Shown here piece after piece: positions 6,865-63,664 of a stretch of DNA of 64,000 nt (position 1 is its first letter; each line of letters starts with the position of its first letter). The position numbers and the translations under genes are program-made. This DNA is from a virus. Lineage: Duplodnaviria > Caudoviricetes. The notes beneath the pieces are model-generated. The model was not told the origin of the DNA, searched no databases, and was given only the letters and a program-made list of their open reading frames with translations. The stretch lies in the IMG/VR virus record IMGVR_UViG_3300011832_000025. The stretch is one strand, 5' to 3'.

Positions 6865-7710
6865 ATGAATTACTCTGATACGTTGCCCCGAGTGTACGAA
6901 ATGGAAAATGGATACAATTACAGTGTCCACGCGGTTCCTTTTATTTCCGTACCTGATGCGCAGAAAATTGCGCAAGAAATGCCAAAATTTTCAGCCCAAT
7001 TAAGACCCAAAGCTAAAAAATTGGTGGATCTTCTGACACAGTTTCCCACAATGTCGGTAAATCTTTACGCGCACAATTACTCAATTCCCTCGGAGTACGT
7101 TGATCACTATTGTGTGGTGCAAGCCCGCCCAGAAGGGCGCGAACCGCTTAGCCACAAAAAAACGGACTTGGCTTTTTTGGCGGATCCCACCCAATGGAAG
7201 CTGGAATGCTTAAAACAACTGTGGGATTTGCGCTCCGCCGTCGAAAAGATTAACGACAAATGCAAAATTAAAATCAATATGGCCTGCGTTCAATACGCCA
7301 TGGAATTGTATGAGAAAATAGAAAGCGGTGCGTTGTGTGTTGAAGCGGTGGATATGGGCTCAATGCTTTCCCAGACGGGGTACGCCATATTCAATATCAC
7401 CAATGGGGGGTATGTGAACAGCCAACTAAAGTACGCCTGCGAAACATTGAACAGCGCGGAATTGTTTCCCACAGAAGTGGCCGCGCGCAATTATATCAAC
7501 TCCAAAGCTGATTACGGCTGTCATTACACAATCATTCCGATTGCCATGCAAGCCGGTCCTCATTTGGGGGTGGTGTCCCGAGGCGTGCGCCACGGATCGA
7601 TGGAGCAACGGGACCAAGAGCAGTTGGCGCTTTTGGAAAAAGAGATTTTGGTGGTGAATTTGCCCACTGACAATACGTCGGCGCAAAAAACCAAAAAATC
7701 CAAAATCTAA
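6865..7710 (+). CDS. hypothetical protein, basic C-terminal tail (KKSKI)
   Basis: ORF with RBS aagga before ATG 6865. Confidence 0.7.
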   Translation: MNYSDTLPRVYEMENGYNYSVHAVPFISVPDAQKIAQEMPKFSAQLRPKAKKLVDLLTQFPTMSVNLYAHNYSIPSEYVDHYCVVQARPEGREPLSHKKTDLAFLADPTQWKLECLKQLWDLRSAVEKINDKCKIKINMACVQYAMELYEKIESGALCVEAVDMGSMLSQTGYAIFNITNGGYVNSQLKYACETLNSAELFPTEVAARNYINSKADYGCHYTIIPIAMQAGPHLGVVSRGVRHGSMEQRDQEQLALLEKEILVVNLPTDNTSAQKTKKSKI

Positions 7711-7727
7711 CACACCCCGAGAATTGT

Positions 7728-8936
7728 ATGAGCCAGCGGTTTGAAGACAATATTATCCAAGCGATCACCACTTCCAACGTGGAGTTGTTAAAAGCAACTT
7801 TGGAAAAATCGGACCGAAAGATTGCTTGGAACCAAACGTATGATGGGTTGTCGGTGTTGGCCTTGTGCGTCAAGTTTTTTCATCCAGAGATTGTTAAAAC
7901 CCTGTATCCGTCTTCACAGCAGATCCTTCCCGATGAGGTGTTCACCTATATCATTGAACACGCGCCTCAGGCGGTTGTTGAGGCGTTTGCTGATAATGTC
8001 ATTGCAACACTCAATGAGGAGTTGGATGAAAATAATCTGTGGAACGACGACAATCTTGCCGAACAGGTTCTCAAAACATTGGAGAGATCCACCCCACATA
8101 TTATTCCTCTTATAAACCACTCTTCTTGCAAGGTGATCAAAGAATTACTTGAAAACAAAATTGGGTCACATTTTTTATCGGTGTTGTTGATCAAAGCGGT
8201 TGAGTGGGGCAACGCAAAACTGTTGCACCACGCGCTGGAACAAATTCAACAACAAGATTTAAATCTGTGGCCCCCCTTGGCCTATAAAGATTGGACCACA
8301 GCACATATTCACTGCGTTTACCAAATGTACGCCGCGCAATCCCACCCCGCTCTGAACACATTTCTCGACCAAATGGGAGAGAAGACATGGGGAAACCTTC
8401 AAAAAGCGCACCACACTGTGGCGTTGTACAGTATTCAGGCGTTAAAGCACGTGCTGAACAATGACAACGCCGCCAACACAAATGTGTTTGTTCAAAACGC
8501 GTCCCAAGACGGGTTGCGATTCTTCAGCGATACTGATGTGTTAACCCAGTTGAACGCAAAAGAGTTGAAGCGATTGTTGAGGGCGGGCCAGGGCCGGGTG
8601 ATTGACCACTATAGGTTTTTGTCGACTTCCGTATTGAATTTTGAAATTCCCATTGTTTTGGAACAATACCGACGAATGTGTTTCAGCCCCAACCCAGATC
8701 AAGAGCGACAAATTTTTCAGGAGATGTGCGCGTCGCTGGTGCCCAGCATACCGTACGCATTTCAAGAAAAGCGGATGGATTTGGAAAAATTTTACGGGTC
8801 CATTTATGGAGCACCGCCCAACCAGAGCGTTTCGGTTCTGGATTGTTTAAGTCCCCCCGATCGGGCTTGGGTCGAAAAACGCCTATTGATGGAACACCTT
8901 CCCTGCTCGGTCTCCTCCAAAAAGTCAAAGATTTAA
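7728..8936 (+). CDS. hypothetical helical protein, possibly degenerate ankyrin-like; tail KKSKI
   Basis: 402 aa ORF; LIKAVEWGNAKLL resembles an ankyrin-type helix pair. Confidence 0.65.
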   Translation: MSQRFEDNIIQAITTSNVELLKATLEKSDRKIAWNQTYDGLSVLALCVKFFHPEIVKTLYPSSQQILPDEVFTYIIEHAPQAVVEAFADNVIATLNEELDENNLWNDDNLAEQVLKTLERSTPHIIPLINHSSCKVIKELLENKIGSHFLSVLLIKAVEWGNAKLLHHALEQIQQQDLNLWPPLAYKDWTTAHIHCVYQMYAAQSHPALNTFLDQMGEKTWGNLQKAHHTVALYSIQALKHVLNNDNAANTNVFVQNASQDGLRFFSDTDVLTQLNAKELKRLLRAGQGRVIDHYRFLSTSVLNFEIPIVLEQYRRMCFSPNPDQERQIFQEMCASLVPSIPYAFQEKRMDLEKFYGSIYGAPPNQSVSVLDCLSPPDRAWVEKRLLMEHLPCSVSSKKSKI

Positions 8937-9019
8937 CTTGCAGACAGAATGGCGGCGATTTTTCTTTGCACCCCAAGAAAAACACTGCTATACTACACCC
9001 ATCACTATTGGATTATTTT

Positions 9020-10057
9020 ATGTCTGACCCTAAAACCCTAACCGACTTGCTGGCCCAGTTGCAGCAAACCATTGGTGAAATTCAAGAGCATCACGAATGG
9101 AACGAGATTGACGGCCCCTCGAAGGTGTTTGACGTCGTGTCCGGGCCCATTTTGCCTCTGTTGCACAATTACAAGTGGCGCGAAAAAATTTTGACCGAGA
9201 AAGCTAATCAGGTGTTGGGGAAATCCCCTGGCGTTCATGGATCGGATGGGAAAACGCAACCACAGATGGAATCCAAATCCGCCAAGTTAAAGAGCCGGCT
9301 CATCAACATCGCCGCGGCTATTGGTATGTACGACAAAATTGAATCAAAAGTGGATTCCAATGAAGCGCTGGACACCTCTCCTTTGTTGGATCATTTCAAC
9401 ACCGGTGCGGTGCGGGAAGAGGCCGCCTTAGCACTCATTCAAGCCACCCCGTTGCAAGGAAAGGAGGGGAAAACAGTTATGTTTTCGTCACCCCGCCGTG
9501 CCGCCCGTTTGTTGAAAATTTTGGAAGAGAAATCGGTGTTGGCCCGCGACAAAATGGGGGATCTGGTGTTGGGGGTTAACCCGTGGGTTGCGGTTGAGTG
9601 GCCCCCGACCTTGCTAACTATTGGCGTGGCGCGCTACGAACACAGTGTGTTTGGATTGTTTGGGGCGCAAGAAAAAGCTCTACTGACTGTTTTGTGCGAC
9701 AGCAAAGACATTGAAGAGGTGCTGGGCGATCATTTTGAAAAACGCTTTGGAGAGTACAGAGAACAGATGGATGTCAGGGGCAGCAACCCCAACCATGGCG
9801 CGGCCCCATCCGCCCATGATTCGGTTAAAATTTCGTTAGAGCAGGTGTTGTCTCTGCCCTCCAGTCGGGTTATTCATTTGGATACGGGGGCGCTGTGGAG
9901 CGAAAAAATCAAACTTGATCCCTTGTTGGTTGACAAAATCCAAAAAATGCCCGATCGTCGCACCCAAAAGGGCGTTATTAAACAGCAAATTTCGCGGTAC
10001 GTAACGCAATTTGAGGCCCATGAGCAATCGTTGAAAAACGCTAAAATCAAACCCTAA
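9020..10057 (+). CDS. hypothetical protein, possible PD-(D/E)xK restriction-endonuclease-like fold
   Basis: RE...GSDG..QMESKS resembles D...ExK catalytic spacing; near a DNA MTase. Confidence 0.45.
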   Translation: MSDPKTLTDLLAQLQQTIGEIQEHHEWNEIDGPSKVFDVVSGPILPLLHNYKWREKILTEKANQVLGKSPGVHGSDGKTQPQMESKSAKLKSRLINIAAAIGMYDKIESKVDSNEALDTSPLLDHFNTGAVREEAALALIQATPLQGKEGKTVMFSSPRRAARLLKILEEKSVLARDKMGDLVLGVNPWVAVEWPPTLLTIGVARYEHSVFGLFGAQEKALLTVLCDSKDIEEVLGDHFEKRFGEYREQMDVRGSNPNHGAAPSAHDSVKISLEQVLSLPSSRVIHLDTGALWSEKIKLDPLLVDKIQKMPDRRTQKGVIKQQISRYVTQFEAHEQSLKNAKIKP

Positions 10058-14692: not shown

Positions 14693-16396
14693 ATGAACAA
14701 TCTGTTTGTTGAAAATTTGGTGTCGTATTGGTTGAAAGTCGAACAACAAATTTTAGAGCGGCCCAGCACCAACCGCAATAAAGCGTTGTTGGATATTTGG
14801 CGTTCAATATCTTTGCCCGTCACCTTAAATCCTCCTGCGTTAGGGCTGGCAAATCAGTATTTAAATCCAAATAACAATGCTGAAGAATTTGAAGCGAAAT
14901 TAAAACAGTATGTGGAAAAGTCTTTACAAATTTTTGGAGACATACTGTTGGGTGAATTTAAAAGCGGAACCCATTTATACGCAACACTGAGCGGCGGAAG
15001 AAACCATGGGGGCGGATATATATTGTCGCCGTTTCGTGCGGAAGCGCAAAATGTTTTTGGTGTGACCCCAGATAAATTCAATACAAGTTGCGCAATTGAA
15101 GAGGCGTACTCTCAAATTGTTAAATTATCTTTGGGGGAGAAGTGGGGAGATTTGTGTTGGCAAATGTTTGAACAACTCCAGCCAACGCAACCAAGCCATA
15201 TTGAACAAGAAATTGAAAGCAATGCGGGGAACTGGAAAAGTTTGTACGAGGGAACAATACAAAATTATCCATGGAAGAAATGGAAAGAGTTGCACTCAAA
15301 ATATGGTTTTTCAGCCATAAAAATTGGGATGGACACAAATTTACAGGATGTTTCACAAGCCACCCAGAAGGTTGTGGATCTGTGCGAAAAAATGTTAAAT
15401 CTTTTCCCAACGGCGCCACATGTGGTGTCAGCCAACGGTTGTTCTTTAGAGTTCTCTGCTCTTACGGATTATTTCGGCCTTGACCACGTTGTTGGTCTTT
15501 ACCACGTTGTGTCCCACCACATCGAAATTGCAATTGACAAAAGTGGTAATGAAATGGAGAGCGCTTATATTCATGAATGGATGCACGCGGTGGATTATAA
15601 GTCACGAGGTTTTTATTACAACAACGAATATTTTGATCCAAGAGACAAAGAAATCAAACCTGTCATTGAAAAAATTTCAGCGCAGTTACAAAACTTACAG
15701 GCCGATCCAAATATCTACAAGCAGTGGCTGGAAGATGGGTATTTCACAGACGACGAGATATCTTGGAAAAACACCTTAAAACAATGGCTAAAAACATATG
15801 GGACAACCGAAACTCAAAACGATATAGAAAAGGTGGCTGTTTCTGTTGGAAAAAGTTTTATAAAGGCCTTGCACAAATTTGGAGACGACAGTGATAAAAG
15901 ACGCGCTGTTGAAAGTGTATTGCAGCCGTTTTTGGCGGTGAATGTGCCACGCAACACAATTTCAGAACTTATTTCTGAGGTTCTCAAATACAAAAATCTA
16001 CGTCTCTTTGCTGAAAAAGAGTTTAAAAAACCCCAAAGTTGCTTTATGTCCGGATCTAAGTTTGGTGATTATGTGCGCAAACAAAATCTTGTTAACAACG
16101 CAAATCCCACGGTCATTCCAATCAAACATACATACTATACTTTACCGGAAGAAATGTTGGCCCGTGCAGCAGAGATGATTATCCCCGAACTGACAGATAT
16201 GGGGTATAATCCCGAAAAAATTCACGCTAAAAGGATCACATACATTAGTGGCCAAGAGAAAAGTCAAGTCCGTCCGCTGTTCGAAGAATTGGTGAACACG
16301 TTAAACACAGTATTCACCGTCAAAACCTCATTGTCGGACAAAATTAAAGAGAAGCGTCAAGAACTGACTACCTCCGAAACAATATTTAAAATATAA
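14693..16396 (+). CDS. LPD1-like (polyvalent-protein-associated) zincin metallopeptidase domain protein
   Basis: HEWMHAVD and YYTLPEEMLARAAE; AT-richer than flanks. Confidence 0.65.
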   Translation: MNNLFVENLVSYWLKVEQQILERPSTNRNKALLDIWRSISLPVTLNPPALGLANQYLNPNNNAEEFEAKLKQYVEKSLQIFGDILLGEFKSGTHLYATLSGGRNHGGGYILSPFRAEAQNVFGVTPDKFNTSCAIEEAYSQIVKLSLGEKWGDLCWQMFEQLQPTQPSHIEQEIESNAGNWKSLYEGTIQNYPWKKWKELHSKYGFSAIKIGMDTNLQDVSQATQKVVDLCEKMLNLFPTAPHVVSANGCSLEFSALTDYFGLDHVVGLYHVVSHHIEIAIDKSGNEMESAYIHEWMHAVDYKSRGFYYNNEYFDPRDKEIKPVIEKISAQLQNLQADPNIYKQWLEDGYFTDDEISWKNTLKQWLKTYGTTETQNDIEKVAVSVGKSFIKALHKFGDDSDKRRAVESVLQPFLAVNVPRNTISELISEVLKYKNLRLFAEKEFKKPQSCFMSGSKFGDYVRKQNLVNNANPTVIPIKHTYYTLPEEMLARAAEMIIPELTDMGYNPEKIHAKRITYISGQEKSQVRPLFEELVNTLNTVFTVKTSLSDKIKEKRQELTTSETIFKI

Positions 16397-17235: not shown

Positions 17236-18051
17236 ATGACAGCGTTGTTGGACCAGCCTCTCTCGCGATGGGAACACTTTCGCGCCTTGTATTTGGGCGC
17301 TCAAACCACCTTCAGCACCCCCCGCCCCAAACGGTCCCGCAAAAATTGGCGCGGTGTGTTTCTTGCTCCCGTGTGTGTTCCCTTTTTGCCCACACTTGGA
17401 GTTCTGTTGGGTTCCTTTTTAGGGTGGTTTCCCGCCTTCCACACTGAAGGTGTTGCGGTGGTGATCGGCCTTGATACTCTGGCTTTGATTATCGGAAGTG
17501 TGGCCGGGCCCACGTTAAACGCACTGGGATTACTGGGTGTCGGAGCTCTCGTGGGGATGGGGATCCTATATGAAGGGGTCTCGTCCGCAGACAACCTTTA
17601 TCAAAATATATGTCAAAAGATGTTCAATAAAAATTATAGTTCTTATCCCTTAAAAAAAATGATTGAAAACCGAGAGGCGCAACTGCGCCGCCGCCACGCG
17701 TTGAGGTTGGACGAATATTCTTTAACGGAATTGCATTTTTGCCTCACCGAATGCGCTTTCCCTCTGCGCCAAAAAGTAAAAGACTGGCAAACCCACAACC
17801 CCGTTTTTCAACACCGTCATTTGGAGGAACTGCGGGCGCGCGTCGTCAACCAATTCACAACCTTTGAAGCGTACGCAGAAAAATTGCACGATTTCCGTTG
17901 CAGCAAAAACACCGGAATCACCAAAAAAGAAAAACTCTCTTGGCGAACACAGAACGACATCAATAGGCTCTTAATGCCCCAGTCCACCAATCTGCAAATT
18001 CATTTGGATAAATTCCATGAAACAAAACCAGGGCAAAAACTTCGACTGTAA
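17236..18051 (+). CDS. hypothetical membrane protein, tail KLRL
   Basis: RBS ggaggt; hydrophobic segments. Confidence 0.65.
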   Translation: MTALLDQPLSRWEHFRALYLGAQTTFSTPRPKRSRKNWRGVFLAPVCVPFLPTLGVLLGSFLGWFPAFHTEGVAVVIGLDTLALIIGSVAGPTLNALGLLGVGALVGMGILYEGVSSADNLYQNICQKMFNKNYSSYPLKKMIENREAQLRRRHALRLDEYSLTELHFCLTECAFPLRQKVKDWQTHNPVFQHRHLEELRARVVNQFTTFEAYAEKLHDFRCSKNTGITKKEKLSWRTQNDINRLLMPQSTNLQIHLDKFHETKPGQKLRL

Positions 18052-47658: not shown

Positions 47659-47663
47659 AATAT

Positions 47664-49971: not shown

Positions 49972-50097
49972 TCAGGCAACACATCAGATACAAAAAAAAA
50001 GGCCATTCGTTGAGTGGCTTTTTTGTGTGTGAAATTTAATATTTTAACCCCTTATGTTCTACCATTTTTTATGTGTCCAGTTGTGTTGTAAATATAC

Positions 50098-50175: not shown

Positions 50176-50204
50176 AGTCATTGTTTTTGTTATATTTTTT
50201 TAAT

Positions 50205-50275
50205 ACGTCGTTCGTCCAAGGGTAGGACCCCTGACTCCAAATCAGGTAATGAGAGTTCGAATCTTTCACGGCGTG
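50205..50275 (+). tRNA. tRNA-Trp(CCA) with Glu/Gln-type D-arm; no encoded CCA
   Basis: ACGTCGT/ACGGCGT, GTCC/GGAC D-stem, CCTGA-CT-CCA-AA-TCAGG. Confidence 0.85.
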
Positions 50276-50340
50276 AAATTTTTTAAGTGTTGATATTGTC
50301 CTTCAAAAATGCTATAAAATAGCAAAAATGGAGGCGCAGT

Positions 50341-52424: not shown

Positions 52425-52459
52425 TACACTGATCCATTATCAATTGGAATTTTCGTTCA

Positions 52460-53050
52460 ATGTCCATTAAAAAAAACACAAAATTGCTAATTGAAGCAGC
52501 TCAGGCGGGTAACACCACAGAAGTGCAACGTCTTATTTCGATCTCCGACCCCCAATTTGAAGACAGTAAAGCGTTAATTTGTGCCGCCGCCGCCGGCCAC
52601 GCAGAATGCGTAAAGCTATTGATTCCCGTTTCTGATCCGAACTCCAGAAACAGTGAAGCGTTAATTTTTGCTGCCGCCGCAGGCCATACAGAATGTGTCA
52701 AATTGTTAATTCCTGTCTCAAATCCAAAAGCCAACGGCAGTCAAGCTTTACGCGCTGCTGCGGGATATGGGCATACGGAAGAATGCGTCAAACTTCTTAT
52801 TCCCGTCTGCGATCCAAAAAGCCACAACAGTTTTGCGTTGCAACGATCTTACCACAATAATAATACAACCTGCATTGATCTGTTATACCCTGTGAGTGAT
52901 CCACACGCAGCACTGTATCAACTGCAACAGGATTATCCCGATAATGAAAATGTATGGGGTGAATTGGAACGCCGCATTGCGCACGAACAAAACCAAAAGT
53001 TAAGCGTAGAGATTGATTGTGGCCGTCCAAAAATCGACCGCAAAATGTGA
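52460..53050 (+). CDS. ankyrin-repeat protein (array member 2)
   Basis: Same repeats; tail DRKM. Confidence 0.88.
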   Translation: MSIKKNTKLLIEAAQAGNTTEVQRLISISDPQFEDSKALICAAAAGHAECVKLLIPVSDPNSRNSEALIFAAAAGHTECVKLLIPVSNPKANGSQALRAAAGYGHTEECVKLLIPVCDPKSHNSFALQRSYHNNNTTCIDLLYPVSDPHAALYQLQQDYPDNENVWGELERRIAHEQNQKLSVEIDCGRPKIDRKM

Positions 53051-53083
53051 TACACTGATTCACCATCAATTGAAATTTTCGTT

Positions 53084-53936
53084 ATGTCCATTGAACAAAA
53101 TGCACAATGGTTAATGTACGCGGCGCGGGTGGGAGATGCCGACGAAGTTCAGCGTCTCAATTCCCTTGTGTAATCCCAAATCCGAAGCCAGTTATGCACT
53201 GCGAACGGCTTCCAACAATGGGCACACAGAATGCGTCAAGCTGCTCATCCCAGTATCGGATCCTCACGCCGACAAAAGTGGGGCTTTGCGCTGGGCGGTG
53301 GGCAATAACCATATTGAATGTCTCACATTGTTAATTCCCGTGTCAGACCCCAAAGCCGACGAAAGTTTTGCGTTACGTATTGCCGCTCAAAAAGGTCAGA
53401 CAGAGTGTGTCAGATTATTGATTCCCGTCTCCAATCCGAAGGCCATGAACAGCGAGGAATTGCGTGAGGCGGCTAAAAATGGTCATACAGAATGTGTCAA
53501 ACTCTTAATTCCCGTCTCCGACGTGAAAGACAAAGACAGCGCAGCTCTTTGTGAGGCCGCTAAGAACGGTCATACAGAATGTGTCAAACTCTTAATTCCT
53601 GTGTCGGATCCCACATCCGACAACAGCGCAGCACTGTTTTGGGCGACCGCAAAACGTCAGACAGAGTGTGTGAAATTGTTGCTTCCCATCTCAGATCCGA
53701 AGGCAATGGACAGCGCAGCACTGCGTGTGGCGGTATACAAAGGCTATAAAGATTGTATTAAATTGTTGTATCCACTAAGTGATCTACACGCAGCGCTGTA
53801 TGTCTTGCAATACCAAAATCCTGGTAATGTCAAAATGTGGGGGTGGTTGGAACAACAAATTGCGCACGAGCAAAATCAAATATTGGGCAAAGAGATTGTT
53901 ACGGCAGAAAAGAGCAATGTCTCACGCAAAATATGA
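53084..53936 (+). pseudogene. ankyrin-repeat gene (member 3) with +1 frameshift near 53160
   Basis: MSIEQNAQWLMYAARVGDADEVQRL, then an extra A (ctc-a-att-ccc) before IPLCNPK in another frame; tail SRKI. Confidence 0.8.
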
Positions 53937-53975
53937 TACAATGGTGGAATGCATCGCCATCAAATCTTAATGTTC

Positions 53976-54827
53976 ATGTCCATCTCAAAAAACGACCAAT
54001 TGCTAATTGAAGCGGCCAAACTGGGCAACGTGTCGCAAGTGAGGCAGCTCATTCCATTATCCAATCCACAAGCCAAAGACAGTGAAGCGTTGAGGGTGGC
54101 GGCAAAAAACGGCCACACAGAATGTGTGGAATTGTTGATCCCGGTTTCTAACCCACATATTAAAGACAATGAAGCCTTACGTTGGGCGGCCAAATATGGG
54201 TACACAGAATGCGTACGTTTGCTTATTCCTGTATCGGATCCAAAACATAATAACAGTTCCGCGTTAATTGCGGCGGCGAGTTATGGCCACACTCAATGTG
54301 TGGAATTGTTGATCCCTATATCCGACGCAAAAGAACAAGACAGTGCAGCTTTGCGCTGCGCTGCTTACAATGGTCATACCGACTGCGTCAAGTTGCTCAT
54401 CCCCGTATCGGACCCTTATGCTGATTGCAGTGCAGCTTTGCGTTCCGCTGCATCCAAGGGGCACGCCAACTGTGTTCAATTGCTCATCCCCGTATCGGAC
54501 CCTTATACTGATGGCAGTGCAGCTTTGCGTTACGCTGCTTACAATGGTCAGACAGAATGCGTAAAGTTGTTGATCCCTGTTTCCGACCCGAAAGATTACA
54601 ATAGCTGCGCTCTGCAGTTTGCGGTGATATACAATTATTTTTCCTGCATTGATCTGTTGTATCCGATGAGTGATCCCCACGATGCACTTCATGAACTGCA
54701 ACACGATTACCCCGATGATGTGAGTATATGGGGTGAATTGGAACGCCGCATTTTCCAAGATCAACGCGACAAGTTAAACGATCGGGTCGGTGAAGTTGCA
54801 CGCGCAAAAAATGTTCGCAAAATGTAA
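53976..54827 (+). CDS. ankyrin-repeat protein (member 4)
   Basis: About 7 repeats; tail VRKM. Confidence 0.88.
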   Translation: MSISKNDQLLIEAAKLGNVSQVRQLIPLSNPQAKDSEALRVAAKNGHTECVELLIPVSNPHIKDNEALRWAAKYGYTECVRLLIPVSDPKHNNSSALIAAASYGHTQCVELLIPISDAKEQDSAALRCAAYNGHTDCVKLLIPVSDPYADCSAALRSAASKGHANCVQLLIPVSDPYTDGSAALRYAAYNGQTECVKLLIPVSDPKDYNSCALQFAVIYNYFSCIDLLYPMSDPHDALHELQHDYPDDVSIWGELERRIFQDQRDKLNDRVGEVARAKNVRKM

Positions 54828-54909
54828 CGTCATTTTCCTGAACCAATCGCTTTATGCTTGCCCCAACTATACCAGACTTGGTTGACCGACCTTTGGCTTG
54901 CAAGCTACA

Positions 54910-55899
54910 ATGGCTTCTCCTGTCCAACCCCCTTTTCCTGTGGCCGATGAATACATCGAACCCCTGAGCGACCGTATAGAGATGGCGCTGGTGGACACAA
55001 TCGCCTGGTTGTGGAGAACGGCAGCTTGGGCGGTGATTGCTCTGGGTATCATTCCCTTTCCACCATTTCAGTGGTGGGCGCTGTACACCGCCGTCAGCCA
55101 CGGGCGCACCCGCACGGTCAAGCTCCTGGGGCGGCGTTGGGTGTTTGCGTGGATGCCTGCATCGGTGAACGCGACAATTATGTTGAGGGCGGGGTACCGC
55201 GCCAGCAAATCCCACAGCACAATTGCCAACAAACAGATTTTCACATGGCTGCTCACCCATGGCGGGGTCATCAGTCAAAAAAGTTTTGATCAAGGGTGGT
55301 TGTACACGTACTTTAGTTTCAGCTCGTTTGCCTGCTTGGAAAATTGGGCGGAACGGGCCATTGAACACAACGCAATTGCCGACGACACAAAATACGATTT
55401 GCTCTTGAATTGCATTGAACACAGTTATTATGGCAACCCATACATTGACCACAACCCCAGATACATGGCTTTGTGCATGTCAATGCTTGAAAAGTGGGGG
55501 GCGTTTTTTCACACAGTGCAAGAAGATGAAGAATTGCGTGTCAACTTGTGGAATGCCGTGGTCAAAGGTGGAAGCCCAGAAACAATGAACACATTGTTGC
55601 GTCATACGTCTGCGTCTCATGTTTTAAATATCATGGAGCGTGTTGGAAACTCTAAAAAATGCACAGTGGAAACGCTTAACGCCGTGGCCACCCATATGGA
55701 TGTGCATGACATGCTCCACCAATTGCACAAAAATGCCAGCACTCAATTTTACCGCAATCCACCCGATTTTGAAACATGGCTATCCAACAATTTTCGTTTG
55801 AGTGAAGCGTATAGTGCGTATTGCAACCAACAGCAAAACGCACGCTTGCGCCAGCATATTGAAGAGTTCAAACCACCCGCTTCCAAACGCAAAATGTGA
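54910..55899 (+). CDS. hypothetical protein inside the ankyrin array, tail KRKM
   Basis: Long ORF with N-terminal hydrophobic segment. Confidence 0.7.
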   Translation: MASPVQPPFPVADEYIEPLSDRIEMALVDTIAWLWRTAAWAVIALGIIPFPPFQWWALYTAVSHGRTRTVKLLGRRWVFAWMPASVNATIMLRAGYRASKSHSTIANKQIFTWLLTHGGVISQKSFDQGWLYTYFSFSSFACLENWAERAIEHNAIADDTKYDLLLNCIEHSYYGNPYIDHNPRYMALCMSMLEKWGAFFHTVQEDEELRVNLWNAVVKGGSPETMNTLLRHTSASHVLNIMERVGNSKKCTVETLNAVATHMDVHDMLHQLHKNASTQFYRNPPDFETWLSNNFRLSEAYSAYCNQQQNARLRQHIEEFKPPASKRKM

Positions 55900-55936
55900 T
55901 ACAATGGTCAAATCCATTGTGATTAAGAGTTTCCTT

Positions 55937-56614
55937 ATGTCCTTTGAAGAAAACAGGGTATTGTTAATTAAAGCGATCCAAAACGGAAACGTACAAGAAG
56001 TGATCCGCTTAATTCCTTTCTCAGACCCAAAATTCAACGGAAGTGAAGCCTTGAGTGTTGCTGCCGAATGTGGCCAGGTAGAATGTGTCAAGTGTTTAAT
56101 TCCGGTTTCTGATCCGAAAGCCAATAATAGCAGCGCACTCCAGTGCGCGGCAACGCAGGGCTATGCAGAATGCGTCAAACTCCTTATTCCCCTCTCCGAT
56201 GCGAAAGGAGAGGGCAGCCTGGCACTGCGTTATGCCACCCTAAATGGTCACGCAGAATGTGTCAGGTTGTTAATCCCTGTCTCTGATCCGGGTGTCCATA
56301 ACAGCATTATGTTGCAACAGGCGGCAAATGGTGGTCATACAGAATGCGTAAAGTTGTTAATCCCTGTTTCTGATCCAAAAGCCAACAACAGTGCTGCTTT
56401 ACGAGCTGCTGTTTGGCGTAATCACACAACTTGCATTGATCTGTTGTACCCTGTCAGTGACCCACATGCTGCTCTTCATCAATTGCAACTGAACCATCCT
56501 GGTAATGTCAATGTGTGGGGGAACTTTGAACAACGGATTGCACAAGAGCAAAATAAAAAATTAAACAACGAAATTCGTCAACCAGAAAATCCCACGATTG
56601 TTCGCAAAATGTGA
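55937..56614 (+). CDS. ankyrin-repeat protein (member 5)
   Basis: Same repeats; tail VRKM. Confidence 0.88.
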   Translation: MSFEENRVLLIKAIQNGNVQEVIRLIPFSDPKFNGSEALSVAAECGQVECVKCLIPVSDPKANNSSALQCAATQGYAECVKLLIPLSDAKGEGSLALRYATLNGHAECVRLLIPVSDPGVHNSIMLQQAANGGHTECVKLLIPVSDPKANNSAALRAAVWRNHTTCIDLLYPVSDPHAALHQLQLNHPGNVNVWGNFEQRIAQEQNKKLNNEIRQPENPTIVRKM

Positions 56615-56647
56615 TACCCTGGTGTACACTTTATTAAAATTTTTCTC

Positions 56648-57152
56648 ATGTCTATTGAAGAAAACACAAAATTGTTAATTGAAGCGGCTGAAAAAGGTGA
56701 CGCGGCAGCCGTTCAACGTCTCATTCCAATCTCTAATCCCAAAGCAAAGAACAGTAAAGCTCTGGTTTCATCCGTGTCCCAGGGGCACACCGAGTGCGTA
56801 AAGTTGTTAATCCCCGTCTCCAATCCCAAAAGCAGCCGGCAGCCAAGCGTTGTCTTACGCCGCTCAACAGGGCCACATTAAATGCGTAAAATTGTTAACT
56901 CCTGTGTCTAATCCCAAAGCCCATAAAAGTGCTGCTCTGTGCCGCGCAATTCAATCGGGTCACACACAAGTTGCTGAACTGTTGTATCCCGTCAGTGATC
57001 TCCACGCAGCCCTTCATCAATTGCAACGCGATTACCCCACCCGAAGAGAAATCTGGGAAGGGTTGGAACTGCGCATTGCCCAAGAGCAAAAGCAAAAATT
57101 GAACAAAGAGATTGGCACAAGGCAAACCCCCACGGGTGTACGCAAAATATGA
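56648..57152 (+). pseudogene. ankyrin-repeat gene (member 6) with +1 frameshift in A-run at 56828-56831
   Basis: NPK, then an extra A, then AAGSQALSYAAQQGH in the next frame; tail VRKI. Confidence 0.8.
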
Positions 57153-57188
57153 TACAATCGGAGAATACATTATAATCAAAATCCCATC

Positions 57189-57866
57189 ATGGCGATTAAA
57201 GAAAACACCCAGTTATTGCTTCAGGCGGCGCGGGAAGGCAACGCCGCGGAAGTTCAACGTCTGATTCCTGTGTCTTATCCGAAATTCAGCGAAAATGCGG
57301 CGTTGTGTTATGCCGCAAGATACGGCCACACCGAATGCGTCCGGCTATTGATTCCCGTATCGAACCCCTCTGCGAATGGAAGGGCGGCTTTGCGGGACGC
57401 CGCAGAACACGGCCACACCGAATGCGTTCGACTGCTCATTCCCGTCTCCAACCCCAAGGCGGAAAACAGCATGGCTTTGCGTTTGGCGGCGGAGCATGGG
57501 CACACGGAATGCGCGCGGTTGCTCATTCCCGTGTCCGAGCCCACCGCCGCTGAAAGCGTGGCCCTGTATTATGCGGTATACGGTGGCCACATCGAATGCG
57601 TCCGGCTGCTCATTCCTGTATCAAATCCAAAAGACAATACCAGTGTTGCTTTACGACAAGCTTGTCATAATAATGACGCAATCTGCATCGATCTGTTGTA
57701 TCCCGTCAGCGACCCGCATGAAGCTCTTCATCACATGCAAACGTATTACCCCGATGACGTGAATGCGTGGGAAGAGTTGGAACAACGTATTGCCCAAGAA
57801 CAAAGGCAAAAATTGAACAGCGAAATGGGTGAGGCCAAACCAACAGAAATAAAACGCAAAATGTGA
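57189..57866 (+). CDS. ankyrin-repeat protein (member 7)
   Basis: Same repeats; tail KRKM. Confidence 0.88.
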   Translation: MAIKENTQLLLQAAREGNAAEVQRLIPVSYPKFSENAALCYAARYGHTECVRLLIPVSNPSANGRAALRDAAEHGHTECVRLLIPVSNPKAENSMALRLAAEHGHTECARLLIPVSEPTAAESVALYYAVYGGHIECVRLLIPVSNPKDNTSVALRQACHNNDAICIDLLYPVSDPHEALHHMQTYYPDDVNAWEELEQRIAQEQRQKLNSEMGEAKPTEIKRKM

Positions 57867-57905
57867 TACAATCGGGAAACGCATTTTGCTCCCGAGACTT
57901 CTGGT

Positions 57906-58580
57906 ATGTCCATCGAAAAAAACACCCAATTGCTGGTCGACGCTGCGCGAAAAGGCCACAGCGCGGAAGTGTTGCGGCTTATCCCCATGTCCAATCCAAG
58001 CTACAATTACAACAGCGCTTTAAAAGAGGCGGCCCTGAAAGGCAAAACGGAATGTGTCAAATTGCTCATTCCCTTCTCCAATGTTAAAGACAACAACAAT
58101 GCTTTGTATTGGGCGGCAAGCAGAGGCCACACCGAATGTGTTCGCTTGCTCATTCCGGTGTCCGATCCCTGCGCCGATCAAAGTCACGCCTTAAGAATTG
58201 CTTCCGCAAACGGCCACACCCAATGTGTGAAGTTGCTCATTCCGGTAAGCGGGTCCAAAGCGCGACAAAATTTTGCCTTGCGCCTGGCGGCCACCAAAGG
58301 TCAAACGGCCTGTGTTGAATTGCTTATTCCTGTGTCCGACCCCAAAGTATTCGACAGTCAAGCTCTGCAAGAGGCTATTAAACACGACCACCCCGCCTGC
58401 GCGACTTTGCTTTATCCGGTCAGCGATCTTGCGCGCGCTTTGTGGGCTTTGCAACGCGATTACCCCAACCGAAGGGAAATCTGGGAAGATCTGGAACAAC
58501 GCATTGCCCAAGAGCAAAAGCAAAAATTGAACGAAGAGATTGGCGACGCGGGCGGGGGGAAAATCTCACGGAGAATGTGA
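57906..58580 (+). CDS. ankyrin-repeat protein (member 8)
   Basis: Same repeats; tail SRRM. Confidence 0.88.
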   Translation: MSIEKNTQLLVDAARKGHSAEVLRLIPMSNPSYNYNSALKEAALKGKTECVKLLIPFSNVKDNNNALYWAASRGHTECVRLLIPVSDPCADQSHALRIASANGHTQCVKLLIPVSGSKARQNFALRLAATKGQTACVELLIPVSDPKVFDSQALQEAIKHDHPACATLLYPVSDLARALWALQRDYPNRREIWEDLEQRIAQEQKQKLNEEIGDAGGGKISRRM

Positions 58581-58665
58581 TATACTGGACAAATTGACGT
58601 ACTGAAACCCACGAAAACTATAAATGCTGGTTGTCTTAACCCCCATCTATCGACAGGAACCCCGT

Positions 58666-59205
58666 ATGGCAAAAAGCGCCGCAAAAAACTACCAGTTGAA
58701 AGACGTGGTGGAATTCGCCCAAAACACATCTTCCACAAGTGTGCTGTCTTGGATGTTGGCTCGTGAACGGGACACGATCGAAAAAATAAACGAGTGGGAC
58801 GACATCACCCCCCCTGTTGAGGAAGTGTTGTTGGAAGCGTTGTGCATAGCGGTGAAGAAAAACGACCACCCAACCATGATTGTGTTGTATTCGCACAAAC
58901 GCGCCAAGCAAGTGTTAAAACACCCCATTCTCAAATCCCCGGTGCACCACGCCGGGCGCGAATTTTTCAAGGTGTTGGCCAGTTTGGTCAGCGCTCATCC
59001 CCCGCTCGCCCACCACATTGCGTCCTTATACGCTCCTTCTGTTGAGTTCAGTTACGACTGGCAAACACTCAGTCCCGCTATCGATAAAGTGCACACCGCC
59101 GTCCAAGATCTTTTCCCCTCCCACCAACAAAAGATGGCGTTGGTGCGCGCGGTCGTTCATCAAGCCCCCTCCTGTCCCCCGCCACCGCTTAAACGCAAAA
59201 TGTAA
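58666..59205 (+). CDS. hypothetical protein, tail KRKM
   Basis: RBS agga; ALCIAVKKND resembles the 59290 protein. Confidence 0.7.
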   Translation: MAKSAAKNYQLKDVVEFAQNTSSTSVLSWMLARERDTIEKINEWDDITPPVEEVLLEALCIAVKKNDHPTMIVLYSHKRAKQVLKHPILKSPVHHAGREFFKVLASLVSAHPPLAHHIASLYAPSVEFSYDWQTLSPAIDKVHTAVQDLFPSHQQKMALVRAVVHQAPSCPPPPLKRKM

Positions 59206-59289
59206 TGGGGATTTTCTGAATACCCCCAAACGTCACCACCCAAAGGCGCTTGGTCTGTGGTACACTGTTGCATCCAACCAGGAGGTGGT

Positions 59290-59787
59290 ATGTCCAATTT
59301 GTTGCAAACCATCACCAACAGTGTGTTTCCGCCCAGCGACCCCATTGTATTGTGCGCCGCGCTGGTTGGGGTGTACAAAAGTGCCGGCGCTCACCGCGCG
59401 GTGTTCGACAACCCCACCGAAGTGCCCGGGTTGGAGCTCACCCGCGCGTTGCAAATGGCGGTGCACCGCAATGACATTCCCTGCATTATTTTGCTGTTTT
59501 CCCAATCCCGCGCTGAGTATATTCTGCAAACCGAACAAGCTACCAGCCCCCGCCACAAAAAAGGCTTGAGGTTGTTGGCGCGCCTGCTGGAATTGCCCCC
59601 CACGGTTGTCTCCAACCTGTTCGCCGCCTTGTTGGACCCTGTTGGAAATCCCCCGCCCACGTTCGAGGAGCGGCAAGAGGGGTTTGTGCAAAGCGTGCGC
59701 ACCGCTTTGGCCACGCATGCGCAACACAAAAAACTCACCCGCGCGGTCACGCCCGTGGCCGGACACGAACGAATCAAAAAAATCTGA
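59290..59787 (+). CDS. hypothetical protein, tail IKKI
   Basis: RBS aggaggt; ALQMAVHRND. Confidence 0.7.
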   Translation: MSNLLQTITNSVFPPSDPIVLCAALVGVYKSAGAHRAVFDNPTEVPGLELTRALQMAVHRNDIPCIILLFSQSRAEYILQTEQATSPRHKKGLRLLARLLELPPTVVSNLFAALLDPVGNPPPTFEERQEGFVQSVRTALATHAQHKKLTRAVTPVAGHERIKKI

Positions 59788-60633: not shown

Positions 60634-60987
60634 ATGAAGTTCACAAGCAATTCGGTGAGTGTGGTGCAAATGGGGTTAGTGGGGTTGGCAATTTTGTCCC
60701 TGGTGTTGTCCACGCTGTGGTTTGCCCAACGTCAATCTGTTTTGCGAACATACGAAAAAGGCGCCGCCAGTGTGGCCGTGGTGTCTTCTCCCGATCCCGC
60801 TGTCCAACAGCTTGAAGAGCGGGTGACCCTGTGTGTGCAAAAAACCGCTTTTGCGTACGTCAGTGGACTGTCGCTGATGCGGGCCACCACTCAAAACACA
60901 CTGGAACACGGGCAACAAGCTTACAAAGACTGTTACAACCAACAAATTGATTGGGCGCAAACCGCCACCCAATTGCCGCGCTTGTAA
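60634..60987 (+). CDS. hypothetical protein with N-terminal TM segment
   Basis: RBS gagg; hydrophobic N-terminus. Confidence 0.65.
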   Translation: MKFTSNSVSVVQMGLVGLAILSLVLSTLWFAQRQSVLRTYEKGAASVAVVSSPDPAVQQLEERVTLCVQKTAFAYVSGLSLMRATTQNTLEHGQQAYKDCYNQQIDWAQTATQLPRL

Positions 60988-61034: not shown

Positions 61035-61808
61035 ATGCCCTCCATTGCCCGCGAAATTGTACAAGCTGTCGCCACCGGAGACGAAGAGCTATTTGCCCAA
61101 CGTCTTTCTTTGGTGATCAACCAACACAGTTTTTTAGCCCACTGCGCATTGGACCATAACACCCCCGCGCACCACCGGATATTGGAGAAATTGGTTCCCC
61201 ATCTGTCTTCTAGGCACATCAGTGAATGCCTGCTGCGCGCGATTGAAACAGACAATCTGGGCGCGTTTGTGGTGTTGCTTCCTTCCTACGCCTCCACACA
61301 ACACAACAGCGAAGCGCTGCGCCACGCGGTTCAACACGTCCGCCCCCAAATGGTTGCAAATTTGCTGCCTGTGTCGGATTGTTCTGTGTACAATTTCTCC
61401 GCCGTGTGCGAAGCTGCCGCGGAGGGCCATTGGGGGATTGTGGAGTTATTGTTGGGCGTATGTTTGGCGGATCTGCCGCCACCAGTTACCAGGGAAATAT
61501 TGGAATACGCGGCCATTGATGGGCAGGCTCAATTGGTGCAGACATTCTTACCCACGGCGCCAACCCCACTGGACCCTCTGATCATGGTGAAGACCGCCCA
61601 ACAGGGGCATTGGGAAGTCGTTGCGGACTTGTACCCCCACAGTGATCTGCGGCACTTTAACACGCTATTGGAGAGTTTGCGCGCCCACCAGGAGTTGTCC
61701 GAAGCGGATTTTTTGGCGCTGAAATACCATCAGGAAAACCGAACCCAAAAACTTTTGCGCAAAGAAATTGCCAACAATGGGGTCCCGACCGCGCAACGAA
61801 AAATGTAA
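61035..61808 (+). CDS. divergent ankyrin-repeat protein, tail QRKM
   Basis: SEALRHAV, LLPVSD, AAAEGHWGIVELLL, LYPHSD. Confidence 0.75.
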   Translation: MPSIAREIVQAVATGDEELFAQRLSLVINQHSFLAHCALDHNTPAHHRILEKLVPHLSSRHISECLLRAIETDNLGAFVVLLPSYASTQHNSEALRHAVQHVRPQMVANLLPVSDCSVYNFSAVCEAAAEGHWGIVELLLGVCLADLPPPVTREILEYAAIDGQAQLVQTFLPTAPTPLDPLIMVKTAQQGHWEVVADLYPHSDLRHFNTLLESLRAHQELSEADFLALKYHQENRTQKLLRKEIANNGVPTAQRKM

Positions 61809-61851
61809 AGGAAGTCAAAAACAACACAGCCCCATCTGGGGCTGTGTTGCG

Positions 61852-62316
61852 TTACGCCATATAACTCACCACCTGCAGCGCTGGAGGGTCTGTGACTCCG
61901 ATGGCTTGAAGCAGCGGCAGACAGTTGGTGTTGTATGTGGCAATCTCTTGCGCCGTCGGCCCACTGTTGAGTTTGTTCTGAAAATCTTGAGGGGTGCTGA
62001 GCCCACCGTACCCCTTCGTCGCCAACAACACACCAAAACCATGGGTGTAGCCTGGCTCAAAGGTTGTGTTTTCACAGCGGCTGTCGGTGTCTTCCGCAAT
62101 CAGAATTCCTTGAGAAAGATTGTAGGAATCAAGCTGGAAGTGCGCCAGCAAGTCGTCAAACTCCTCCTCATCGAAGTCCTCCGCTTCAAAATCGTCCATG
62201 TCCACGTCCGCTTTATTTCGGGTAAACTCCCGTTGCATGTGTTCCATTAACTCCTGGCTTTGCTGGGGGGTCAACAGATGCCCGTAAATGACGTTGTTGG
62301 AAATGCCGTAGCCCAT
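61852..62316 (-). CDS. hypothetical acidic protein
   Basis: RBS gaggg; convergent hairpin at about 61823-61848. Confidence 0.65.
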   Translation of the reverse strand: MGYGISNNVIYGHLLTPQQSQELMEHMQREFTRNKADVDMDDFEAEDFDEEEFDDLLAHFQLDSYNLSQGILIAEDTDSRCENTTFEPGYTHGFGVLLATKGYGGLSTPQDFQNKLNSGPTAQEIATYNTNCLPLLQAIGVTDPPALQVVSYMA

Positions 62317-62530
62317 GATCTACCCTCTGTTGTTGGTGTGGTGCTATAATAGCACCACAGATCCCGCTGTGGGTGAAATTTTAAGCGCTGTTGGGGTGTG
62401 TTCATCTAAAGAGGGGCGTGGAGAAATCTCAAAAAGAAAGAAATTTTCAAATGAAAAATGTAAAGGATGGTTTCTTTGCAAACATCAGATTTGCGGTTAA
62501 AATCAAACGAGATCACCTAAAGAGACGTTA

Positions 62531-63664
62531 ATGAAAAAGTGGAAAACCCTACGGGGATCAGAGTTGAGCGAATTTGCCGCTACAGCGCGCGCCCAAGCCT
62601 TGGGTGCGGATTTTGCGCTGCATGTGGCCAAATACGGAACACAACAAGATTATCACACCTTCCTTAACACCTCAACCACACCACTTGACACCTGCACCGA
62701 ATATTTTTTGGCCTGGCCATCGGCTTCAAGCGCCTGGCTGATCTCCCATCTTAAAACCTCAAAAGATCCGTATTCACATTTAAACGCAGCACACCATATT
62801 CTTGCCAATGTGGAAACGCTGGCCGAAGAAAACTGCGATCCTTACGAAATATTGGCGTGTGTGGATTTTGCCAATATTCCCGAAGATGAAAATATAGGAA
62901 TGTTTCACGCCTTGGTGTATGCGGCCGCGTTTGACGTGATCAGAGACCATTGGGGCGTGTACGAGAAAGCCATACAAAATAATGTGGCAGAGAATGTTAT
63001 ATTTGCTGCTCAATGGGGCTTGGATATCCGCACGCGCGTGAATTGGGCGCCCGCCACTCCAGGTGAAACCCACGCGTATTTTACCGCCTGCTGCCGCGGC
63101 GGTTTGCTCTCGCGGGTCAAAGAATTGTCAATTGGTCCCCAAGAGCGACAACTGTTGCGCAAAAGTTTTGTGTTGTCCACCCCCAATCCTTACGCCCACG
63201 AAGTGTTGGAGCATTTGTGGGAGGCGTACCCCGATACGTATTGGCACCAAGAAGAGTTAATTTTGCGCTCAGCGTGCAAAATTGCCCAACCTTTGCGCCA
63301 AAAAGTCATCGAGCATTTTGTAAAACAGTCGCCTGCTCTTGCTCAACAGATATTAACCGAATTGGCGTGCGGTGCTGTTTCCAGTCGCAATAAAGATATA
63401 TACAAATCTGTATTTTCCTACATTCCAGTCGAAAATTATTCGCAACTGCTGCGCACCGCAATCGACCACCGCAGTAAAACGGTGTTAAAGCAATTGTTGC
63501 AACACTCTAAAACCTCAAAATTGTTTAATAAAGTATTGGGTGAGACCGAGCCGACCAATCATTGTTGGGCGTTAGAGGTGTTGGCCCAAGTTCAAAACAA
63601 AACGCTCACCCAATCCGTTGGCATGAAAAAAGGCACCTCCCCAGTTTCTCGCCGCAAAATCTAA
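62531..63664 (+). CDS. hypothetical helical protein, tail RRKI
   Basis: 377 aa ORF. Confidence 0.7.
   Translation: MKKWKTLRGSELSEFAATARAQALGADFALHVAKYGTQQDYHTFLNTSTTPLDTCTEYFLAWPSASSAWLISHLKTSKDPYSHLNAAHHILANVETLAEENCDPYEILACVDFANIPEDENIGMFHALVYAAAFDVIRDHWGVYEKAIQNNVAENVIFAAQWGLDIRTRVNWAPATPGETHAYFTACCRGGLLSRVKELSIGPQERQLLRKSFVLSTPNPYAHEVLEHLWEAYPDTYWHQEELILRSACKIAQPLRQKVIEHFVKQSPALAQQILTELACGAVSSRNKDIYKSVFSYIPVENYSQLLRTAIDHRSKTVLKQLLQHSKTSKLFNKVLGETEPTNHCWALEVLAQVQNKTLTQSVGMKKGTSPVSRRKI

Follow-up and report, generated by a model that had tools for sequence, protein, structure and literature searches.

A short, basic C-terminal tail is shared by proteins of many families encoded in a 64-kb stretch of DNA from the IMG/VR virus record IMGVR_UViG_3300011832_000025 (64,000 nucleotides, hereafter the window), which belongs to a barely known, uncultured giant bacterial element. 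The tail is real and strongly selected, and it looks like a portable address tag acting at the protein level. Open reading frames (ORFs) were taken as greedy, non-overlapping ATG-started frames of at least 100 amino acids (n = 66). Thirty of them (~45%) end in a basic residue followed by Met, Ile or Leu and the stop codon ([KR][MIL]-stop), where ~1.4 would be expected from the internal dipeptide frequency (P = 4×10−32, binomial test), and 13 of the 66 end in [KR][KR][MIL]-stop, where 0.2 would be expected (P = 6×10−20, binomial test). The last residue is Met in 14/66 ORFs, compared with 2.3% Met in the overall composition. Two further tagged genes lie outside this ORF set: an ankyrin gene with a GTG start (51846–52424), and 59257–59787, which is called as a gene on the related contig L161 and at which the greedy set chose the opposite strand. 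As an empirical control, 160 unrelated loci comprising 1,968 ORFs were gathered with the cysteinyl-tRNA synthetase (CysRS) as query. The [KR][MIL] end is found there in 13 of 895 ORFs on viral contigs (1.5%) and 23 of 1,073 on bacterial contigs (2.1%), 1.8% overall. Enrichment over background, which a first-pass annotation of this DNA had set beforehand as a test of the tail, therefore amounts to 20–30 fold over both composition and the control ORFs. No description of the tail was found in the literature searched, including the main text of the preprint on pMEGA megaplasmids (Guitor et al., bioRxiv 10.1101/2025.09.30.679422). What is new here is a C-terminal address tag of unusual scale, with element-specific endings, on barely known giant elements.

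The tail had been described as common to proteins of unrelated families, and this holds for at most 24–27 families that BLAST keeps separate. When proteins were clustered after trimming their last 30–35 residues, 24 of 75 families were tagged for the window and four loci, and 27 of 94 for twelve sources. These counts are an upper bound on independence, for the solenoid arrays may be remote homologues of one another. A profile built from the 32 C-terminal residues of one solenoid family gives weak matches to the C-termini of five other families and to none of the 1,968 control ORFs, and the solenoid families may therefore have a remote C-terminal cap in common.

The anatomy of the tail was tabulated from one representative per tagged family (n = 24). 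Position −1 is Met in 9, Leu in 8 and Ile in 7; position −2 is Lys in 20 and Arg in 4; position −3 is Arg in 7, Leu in 6, Ser in 2 and Phe in 2, followed by Met and single others; and position −4 is basic in 8 of the 24. Pro, Ser, Thr, Gly, Ala and Asn are enriched from −5 to −12, acidic residues are nearly absent from the last nine positions, and hydrophobic peaks occur at −14 to −21 and at −28. Over the last 12 residues, tagged proteins have a mean net charge of +2.33 and tail-less ORFs one of +0.90. Overall, the tail is a Pro/Ser/Thr-rich, nearly acid-free extension of 12–25 amino acids past the last helix, laid out as a C-terminal capping helix, a Pro-marked break, 7–12 disordered residues, one to three Lys/Arg, and a single Met, Ile or Leu. 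The helix-like motif that the first-pass annotation placed upstream is real but weaker than claimed and is clearest in the alpha-solenoid families, where the module reaches upstream to [YW]-x(3-6)-Q-[QN]-x-x-L-x-x-x-[VIL]. The AlphaFold2 model of the solenoid protein 62531–63664, built on a ten-sequence alignment, is a confident alpha-solenoid with a predicted local distance difference test (pLDDT) score of 90.4 overall; its last helix stops at residue 362, and residues 364–377 have pLDDT <50 and no secondary structure. The tail is thus predicted to be disordered beyond the last helix. A Foldseek search with this 377-residue model returned generic ARM/HEAT-like solenoids as its sole matches.

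Several lines of evidence place the signal at the protein level. Among 84 tagged ORFs of the lineage, the −2 codon is AAA in 63, AAG in 11, CGT in 4, AGA in 3, CGA in 2 and CGC in 1; the last codon is ATG in 39, ATT in 13, ATA in 9, ATC in 8, TTG in 7, CTG in 6, CTT in 1 and TTA in 1; and the stop codon is TAA in 55, TGA in 17 and TAG in 12. The codon proportions in the tails match the genome's own codon usage. The adjacent ORFans 6796–7710 and 7728–8936 encode the same KKSKI ending with different codons (AAATCCAAAATC vs. AAGTCAAAGATT). All ten orthologues of 62531–63664, down to 37% identity, end in RK[MI] (alignment A1), with R374 invariant and K375 at least 90% conserved, and the 10–15 residues ahead of RK[MI] vary and contain indels. 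Because the tail codons vary synonymously, all three stops occur, and orthologues keep RK[MI] while the linker drifts, selection acts on the protein.

A DNA-level motif without synonymous variation had been raised in the first-pass annotation, and such variation proved abundant. In six genes of the ankyrin array (52424–58620) the stop lies within a TGATACAAT-like extended −10 element, which could serve the next gene as a promoter; this overlap is limited to the ankyrin array and is inherited among its tandem duplicates. Elsewhere the downstream context varies, with intrinsic terminators, overlapping or adjacent starts, and one convergent gene (24538), and a promoter at the 24538 tail is excluded because no downstream gene there could use one. 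With eight last-residue codons, six −2 codons, all three stops, and conservation that follows residue class rather than nucleotide, a promoter, terminator or RNA-processing site overlapping gene ends by chance is refuted by the codon data, and its probability is negligible.

The tagged proteins of the window are as follows.

1685–2965, plus strand: 426-residue ORFan ending ASFTKL, a weak variant of the tail (the orthologue on the related locus L169 ends SVTKL)
6796–7710, plus strand: 304-residue ORFan ending KKSKI, with no Pfam or PHROG match
7728–8936, plus strand: 402-residue ORFan ending KKSKI, with no Pfam or PHROG match and no BLAST similarity to the adjacent 6796–7710
14693–16396, plus strand: 567-residue protein ending TIFKI, with a borderline match to LPD1 (polyvalent-protein; PF18796, E = 5.4×10−6, 26.8 bits vs. 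a cut-off of 27)
17236–18051, plus strand: membrane protein with three hydrophobic segments, ending QKLRL
20486–21067, plus strand: protein with two hydrophobic segments and a Pro/Ser-rich linker, ending PGCKI
22423–23475, plus strand: MYG1/UPF0160 homologue (Pfam PF03690, 4.9×10−36), ending NKRGAKM
24538–25764, minus strand: 408-residue ORFan ending PTSVRKM; an intrinsic terminator follows, and the next gene is convergent
28562–29311, plus strand: 249-residue ORFan ending PPRLKM
29375–33336, minus strand: tandem paralogues of 671 and 640 residues, ending VQRKM and TRRKM
34934–40467, plus strand: array of transmembrane-hairpin paralogues, six of which end in hydrophobic-[KR]-[LI] (34934–35566 MLKL; 36236–36889 TVKI; 37823–38521 GLRL; 38531–39163 VMRL; 39238–39834 VFRL; 39847–40467 VLRL)
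42824–43255, plus strand: 143-residue protein ending EVKKNKM, with an upstream paralogue (42375–42815) that has no tail
46265–46855, plus strand: protein with two hydrophobic segments, within the tRNA array, ending KNVFKL
51846–58580, plus strand: ankyrin array (Pfam Ank_2, 1×10−21 to 5×10−60; 51846–52424 DRKM; 52460–53050 DRKM; 53136–53936 SRKI; 53949–54827 VRKM; 55904–56614 VRKM; 57189–57866 KRKM; 57906–58580 SRRM)
54910–55899: non-ankyrin protein within the ankyrin array, ending KRKM
58624–59205, plus strand: small ORFan ending PPPPLKRKM, a paralogue of 59257–59787
59257–59787, plus strand: small ORFan ending HERIKKI, a paralogue of 58624–59205
60634–60987, plus strand: protein with an N-terminal hydrophobic segment, ending TQLPRL
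61035–61808, plus strand: divergent ankyrin-like protein ending PTAQRKM, with Ank_2 below the Pfam cut-off
62531–63664, plus strand: first of a tandem family of ~375-residue alpha-solenoids, ending SPVSRRKI

The tagged classes are thus ankyrins, ~375-residue solenoids, PcfJ-like proteins, the borderline LPD1 protein, hairpin membrane proteins and many ORFans. Every ending quoted in the first-pass annotation is present: KKSKI at 7710 and 8936; SVRKM at 24538, VQRKM at 29375 and TRRKM at 31414, all on the minus strand; KKNKM at 43255, SKRKM at 55899, LKRKM at 59205, IKKI at 59787, AQRKM at 61808 and SRRKI at 63664; and RGAKM at 23475 on MYG1. The tail had been assigned to eight ankyrins, and eight ORFs do end in [KR][KR][MI]; seven of them are clear Pfam ankyrins, but the eighth (61035–61808) matches Ank_2 below the cut-off. 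A truncated ankyrin fragment of 77 residues (56648–56881) has no tail. Further paralogues of 62531–63664 beyond the window are also tagged. The N-terminal ~240 residues of the 29375–33336 paralogues are ~28–32% identical to PcfJ-domain or hypothetical proteins of megaplasmids, carried on Vibrio (0.9 Mb), Alteromonas (0.6 Mb) and Aromatoleum plasmids; Pfam gives no match for these paralogues, and three paralogues of theirs on the related contig L173 end in RKM.

MYG1 relatives at 41–97% identity bear a basic extension of 15–25 residues, and distant homologues of ~300 residues stop right past the last helix. The exact ending is not conserved: RGAKP or RGVKP is found in relatives at 76–77% identity, and SLRR in the L173 orthologue. 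The MYG1 tail therefore appears to be an add-on, although a marginal case. Three further proteins carry near-miss tails that run one or two residues beyond the motif, i.e., the CysRS (5417–6766, KPLKIK), 9020–10057 (NAKIKP) and 49369–49971 (SRIKMK). The CysRS ends in KPLKIR in the related locus L169 and in QKMKR in L173. Such endings could be tags that have decayed or been extended, and are relevant to the idea that the free carboxylate is read.

The tail is unevenly distributed among protein classes. Its reported absence from signal-peptide proteins and homing endonucleases was borne out: six clear signal-peptide or outer-membrane ORFs have no tail, and in the family census only one of seven families with a single N-terminal hydrophobic segment is tagged. 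The canonical ending is missing from the CysRS, two methyltransferases, the RF-1-domain proteins, the HNH and LAGLIDADG endonucleases (the NKI ending of the LAGLIDADG gene is taken as chance), TnpB, McrBC, the TerD/StiP/PRTase/C–C-lyase cluster, IF1 and the SF1 helicase. No recognizable enzyme bears it, the CysRS coming near with KPLKIK. Among tagged families, 17 of 19 soluble ones end in Met or Ile, and five of seven membrane ones end in Leu, usually with a hydrophobic residue at −3 (P = 0.006, Fisher's exact test by family). Soluble proteins thus carry RKM/RKI, in contrast with the hydrophobic-[RK]-L of membrane-hairpin proteins, and there may be two sub-codes. The six tagged members of the hairpin array agree with the earlier remark that this array mostly ends in xxRL/KL; two other members (35600–36226, MIL; 36957–37649, ISL) have no basic −2 residue. 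No hydrophobic segment lies close to the C-terminus in the soluble tagged proteins. From the tagged/untagged and soluble/membrane patterns, the reader of the tail would therefore be cytoplasmic.

A Ter-associated conflict cluster spans 43–1625 of the window and 1–10000 of L169. The window part holds StiP-PELOTA and a TIM-barrel C–C bond lyase, and L169, just upstream of the window, holds PRTase_2/TRSP, DJ-1, SCPU and TerD genes, none of them tagged. Two ORFans among these genes (468 and 483 residues) are tagged, ending in TLKL and KAKI.

The genes of the window have Shine-Dalgarno sites, sigma70-like promoters and many intrinsic terminators, and expression is therefore bacterial. The GC content is 50%, falling to ~41% in an array of 12 tRNA genes (44154–50276: Asn ×3, Ile ×3, Trp ×2, Gly, His, and two with abnormal anticodon loops that ARAGORN could not assign), which is interleaved with HNH/HTH endonuclease genes (44548–45666 and 50341–51738). 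The CysRS is only 40–42% identical to any genome or viral contig, and the huge-phage contigs that bear a CysRS have nothing else in common with the window. A 202-residue RF-1-domain protein (21128–21736, Pfam 1.6×10−24) lacks the N-terminal release-factor domains. An IF1-like protein (PF01176) is encoded on the related loci L161 and L162, and a truncated GluRS/GlnRS-like gene lies on L173. Few window ORFs have Pfam matches, the rest being almost all ORFans, and a PHROG search of ten large ORFans gave no match.

The window's exact proteins were found on contigs from several metagenomes, the longest being 230 kb for this strain. The same tails occur on a 592-kb scaffold whose orthologue of 62531–63664 is ~81% identical, and [KR]M tails are also present on L173, a syntenic 231-kb contig with 41% GC. 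Within the lineage carrying KM endings the tags turn over between orthologues (AKIKP vs. KKNKM, FGKKK vs. ALKM, GAKM vs. SLRR). No match to the replicon was found in phage, plasmid and complete E. coli collections; a metagenome collection gave a single match, a 2.7-kb contig; IMG/VR yielded neither an exact match nor a relative of the 377-residue solenoid family; and tblastn of a 40-residue tail against plasmids gave no match. Walks on related contigs extended the view of the lineage to ~110 kb including the window, revealing a McrBC/methyltransferase/IS1595 island, further ORFan arrays, an SF1 helicase and a LAGLIDADG gene. The island is a strain polymorphism adjacent to the window: SRR1748808 (L175:11264–18676) carries McrBC, an AAA gene, two methyltransferases and IS1595, and other strains (L181/L183) have a further ~380-residue paralogue of the solenoid array at this site. 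On the 592-kb scaffold (L184:13722–15107), a gap of ~1.4 kb without a called gene adjoins the LAGLIDADG endonuclease gene, possibly the site of a structured RNA or of a gene with an intron.

The first-pass annotation had read the tail as a targeting signal for cargo delivered by conjugation or packaged in virions, or else as a tag for timed proteolysis. The shared signal at the protein level stands, but type IV secretion, coupling-protein and relaxase genes were not found in the ~110 kb. Capsid, portal, terminase or other phage structural genes were likewise not found there, nor were genes for plasmid replication, partition or conjugation. Virion packaging is weakened because the ~110 kb hold no capsid or terminase gene, the ten ORFans have no PHROG match, and the IMG/VR search was null.

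Other large contigs, reached through MYG1 homologues, carry different endings. On a 1.23-Mb contig (GCA_902731075.1, GC 59%), LP-x(6-12)-[KR]-x-R-F ends 5 of 20 ORFs, and on a syntenic 46-kb contig (GC 61%) 4 of 20, compared with 4/1,968 control ORFs. On a 406-kb JGI contig (GC 30%), a K-rich K[PI] ending is found in 5 of 15 ORFs vs. 14/1,968 controls, a pattern that may be partly compositional. This contig carries Replicase PF03090, DnaE, RecA, LigA and UvrD; LigA is among the proteins ending in K[PI], and the helicase ends in a K-rich VIK. A 0.94-Mb Vibrio megaplasmid encoding a PcfJ-like domain has no such tails in 40 ORFs. Judging from MYG1 similarity, the contigs with other endings are possibly related elements. 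On the high-GC contigs L172 and L179, a PARP (WGR, PARP_reg and PARP domains), EF-hand proteins and TnpB stand among ORFans ending in PRF.

Tentatively, the tail may be a tag for translocation by a conjugative type IV secretion system. The tail would be exposed in the cytoplasm on the effector-like part of the proteome, i.e., the ankyrin/solenoid arrays, hairpin arrays, PcfJ-like proteins and ORFans, and one receptor would probably bind the basic stretch together with the terminal hydrophobic residue. This receptor could be a coupling protein or adaptor of the secretion system, through which tagged proteins would enter a recipient or target cell together with the DNA or before it. Since possibly related elements differ in their endings, the receptor more likely belongs to the element, co-evolving with it, than to the host. 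Classical type IV translocation signals are of two kinds, unstructured positively charged or hydrophobic C-termini (PMC10025392), and transmembrane domains occur in about a third of type IV effectors (PMC12981334). Export is ranked first because unstructured, positively charged or hydrophobic C-terminal signals are closest in form to the tail and because effectors with membrane domains are exported. The conjugative part of this reading draws on that resemblance and on analogy to pMEGA.

Several observations weigh against type IV translocation. None of the secretion, relaxase and coupling-protein genes was seen in the ~110 kb, out of an element of at least 230 kb. Known effector sets take up a far smaller share of a proteome than the ~45% of ORFs tagged here. 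Type IV signals described so far are loosely defined, and the fixed terminal dipeptide of the tail suggests a pocket that reads the free C-terminus. A Glu-rich E-block is absent (0/24 representatives), hence the tail is no Dot/Icm-type signal. Orthologues in sister lineages differ by gain and loss of the tail, and a single clade of contigs with other endings would be drawn from MYG1 similarity alone. Furthermore, two readers, such as a soluble and a membrane-bound protease, fit the soluble/membrane split at least as well as one coupling protein.

A bolder and more doubtful generalization is that a set of giant bacterial extrachromosomal elements (0.2 to >1.2 Mb, GC 30–61%) run a private addressing code, in which a lineage-specific ending (KM/KI/KL, PRF, KP) on a disordered basic tail and an element-encoded receptor reading it at the free C-terminus would send a third to half of the proteome to one destination. 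If true, this would mean either mass export of at least 100 effectors via the element's own secretion machine or import into an element-built compartment, and it would be a bacterial counterpart of sorting by peroxisomal (PTS1) or nuclear localization signals.

The main rival to translocation, still a live one though we consider it unlikely, is a degron or unfoldase handle, by which an AAA+ machine (host ClpX or FtsH, or the element's paralogue) would engage the tail for rapid or timed turnover of accessory proteins. The tail is disordered, basic and hydrophobic-ended, and it resembles ClpX C-motif 2, which Flynn et al. reportedly described in 2003 and which is said to be exemplified by MuA (RRKKAI-COOH). 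The separate soluble (RKM/RKI) and membrane (hydrophobic-[RK]-L) endings would suit separate soluble and membrane proteases, and, by analogy, pMEGA megaplasmids encode their own ClpX, ClpP and three copies of FtsH. Yet there is no obvious reason to destabilize ~45% of a proteome, including diversifying binder arrays, while sparing enzymes; endings that differ among elements (KM, RF, KP) would be unexpected for the highly conserved host ClpX; and no protease gene was seen in the ~110 kb.

The tail could instead localize proteins without export, to the anionic inner membrane, the nucleoid, an element-built compartment or, as virion cargo, a capsid, which we regard as distinctly improbable. A polybasic stretch with a hydrophobic end is a generic feature of membrane or nucleic-acid affinity, the element encodes large membrane-hairpin arrays, and its CysRS, tRNAs, RF-like proteins and IF1 resemble huge-phage translation genes. 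However, integral membrane proteins, which need no anchor, are also tagged, and a single terminal hydrophobic residue would be a weak one. The capsid version meets the lack of capsid, portal and terminase genes in the ~110 kb and of PHROG matches for the ten ORFans, as well as the failure to find the lineage in the IMG/VR search, and 45% of ORFs is too many for virion cargo.

Selection for efficient translation termination, perhaps given the unusual tRNAs and release-factor paralogues, is very unlikely. Basic −2 and large −1 residues are said to favor termination in E. coli (reportedly work of Bjornsson, Mottagui-Tabar and Isaksson in 1996), and RF-1-domain proteins are encoded on the element, as are two tRNAs whose anticodon loops are abnormal. 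This leaves unexplained, however, the disordered linker of 12–25 residues, the basic cluster reaching to −6, the acidic depletion, and the exemption of enzymes and exported proteins, and on another element the tails end in Pro, the residue least favorable to termination.

There is only a slim chance that the tail is a signal for a eukaryotic host, PTS1 or a nuclear localization signal acting after delivery into a eukaryotic cell: [KR][LMI] at −2/−1, upstream basic residues and a flexible linker give a PTS1-like layout, KRKM and PLKRKM-type ends resemble a monopartite nuclear localization signal, and bacteria interacting with eukaryotes often have ankyrin arrays, but canonical PTS1 ([SAC][KRH][LM]) is found in 1 of 24 representatives, with −3 mostly Arg or hydrophobic, the bacterial expression signals mean that a separate export signal would still be needed, and membrane-hairpin proteins are tagged too.

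Giant plasmid-like elements and huge phages encode mostly proteins of no known function. A shared tag sets the effector-like part of such a proteome, which bears it, apart from an untagged housekeeping part, and, being short, the tag is directly usable in pull-downs for the reader, reporter fusions for the destination and genome scans for the cargo set. Should a secretion machine read the tag, the elements would pass unusually many proteins into other cells; should a protease read it, programmed instability would extend to half of their proteome. Either outcome would change the understanding of such elements.

The tail was compared with known C-terminal signals. Like the substrates of VirB/D4 type IV systems (Agrobacterium VirF, VirE2, VirE3 and MobA; Vergunst et al. 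2005, reviewed in PMC10025392), it is extreme C-terminal, unstructured, hydrophilic and net positive, and both kinds of signal are portable, sit on unrelated proteins and are read in the cytoplasm. They differ at the very end: in Agrobacterium a loosely defined Arg motif leaves the last residue free, whereas the tail has a Lys-dominated −2 and always ends in Met, Ile or Leu; moreover, the tail covers ~45% of ORFs and no type IV system was found in the ~110 kb. Dot/Icm (type IVB) signals are likewise C-terminal, 20–35 residues long, rich in small polar residues and found on hundreds of effector-like proteins including ankyrins and membrane proteins (Nagai 2005, Huang 2011 and Lifshitz 2013, reviewed in PMC10025392). 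The Dot/Icm E-block (−10 to −17) is missing from the tail and the match was rejected: none of the 24 representatives has three or more Glu there, the mean being 0.75 Glu vs. 0.45 in tail-less ORFs, and the last nine residues are almost acid-free. Sortase and PEP-CTERM signals were rejected, as the soluble tagged proteins lack a C-terminal hydrophobic segment and the linker is Pro/Ser/Thr-rich. Type I secretion C-termini are poor in Lys, His, Pro, Met, Trp and Cys and often end in acidic plus hydrophobic residues; this candidate was also rejected, the tail being Lys/Pro/Met-rich and nearly acid-free.

In both ClpX C-motif 2, as reportedly seen in MuA, and the tail, a flexible segment leads into a basic cluster and then into one or more nonpolar residues that form the free C-terminus, and the [KR][KR][MIL] ends of 13/66 window ORFs match the motif as it is said to be defined. 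MuA-type tags are rare single cases, whereas the tail labels much of a proteome with an element-dependent ending. With PTS1 the tail shares a three-part layout of flexible hinge, basic enhancers and terminal basic-hydrophobic dipeptide at the free carboxylate; canonical PTS1 was rejected, given the single fit in 24, the bacterial expression signals and the tagging of membrane proteins.

As to the element itself, pMEGA megaplasmids of Enterobacteriaceae measure 1.3–1.58 Mb, have no rRNA or ribosomal proteins and up to 208 tRNAs, and encode ~20% alpha-solenoid proteins, ankyrin arrays, TnpB, TerD, ClpXP and three FtsH copies, along with a type IV secretion system, a coupling protein and MOB_F relaxases (Guitor et al., bioRxiv 10.1101/2025.09.30.679422). 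Their secretion system, coupling protein and relaxases were not seen in the ~110 kb here, their GC content is ~26% vs. 50%, and the main text of the preprint contains no occurrence of "C-terminal" and describes no shared tail. The likeness is one of content, not a sequence match: both are giant, with mostly novel proteins, tRNA arrays, tandem paralogue arrays, ankyrin/solenoid proteins, TnpB, TerD and translation factors. The window shows the corresponding few Pfam matches, 12 tRNAs and solenoid arrays, and lacks core metabolism, with the absence of rRNA and ribosomal-protein operons judged on the part examined. By this analogy, pMEGA appears to be the closest kind of element described.

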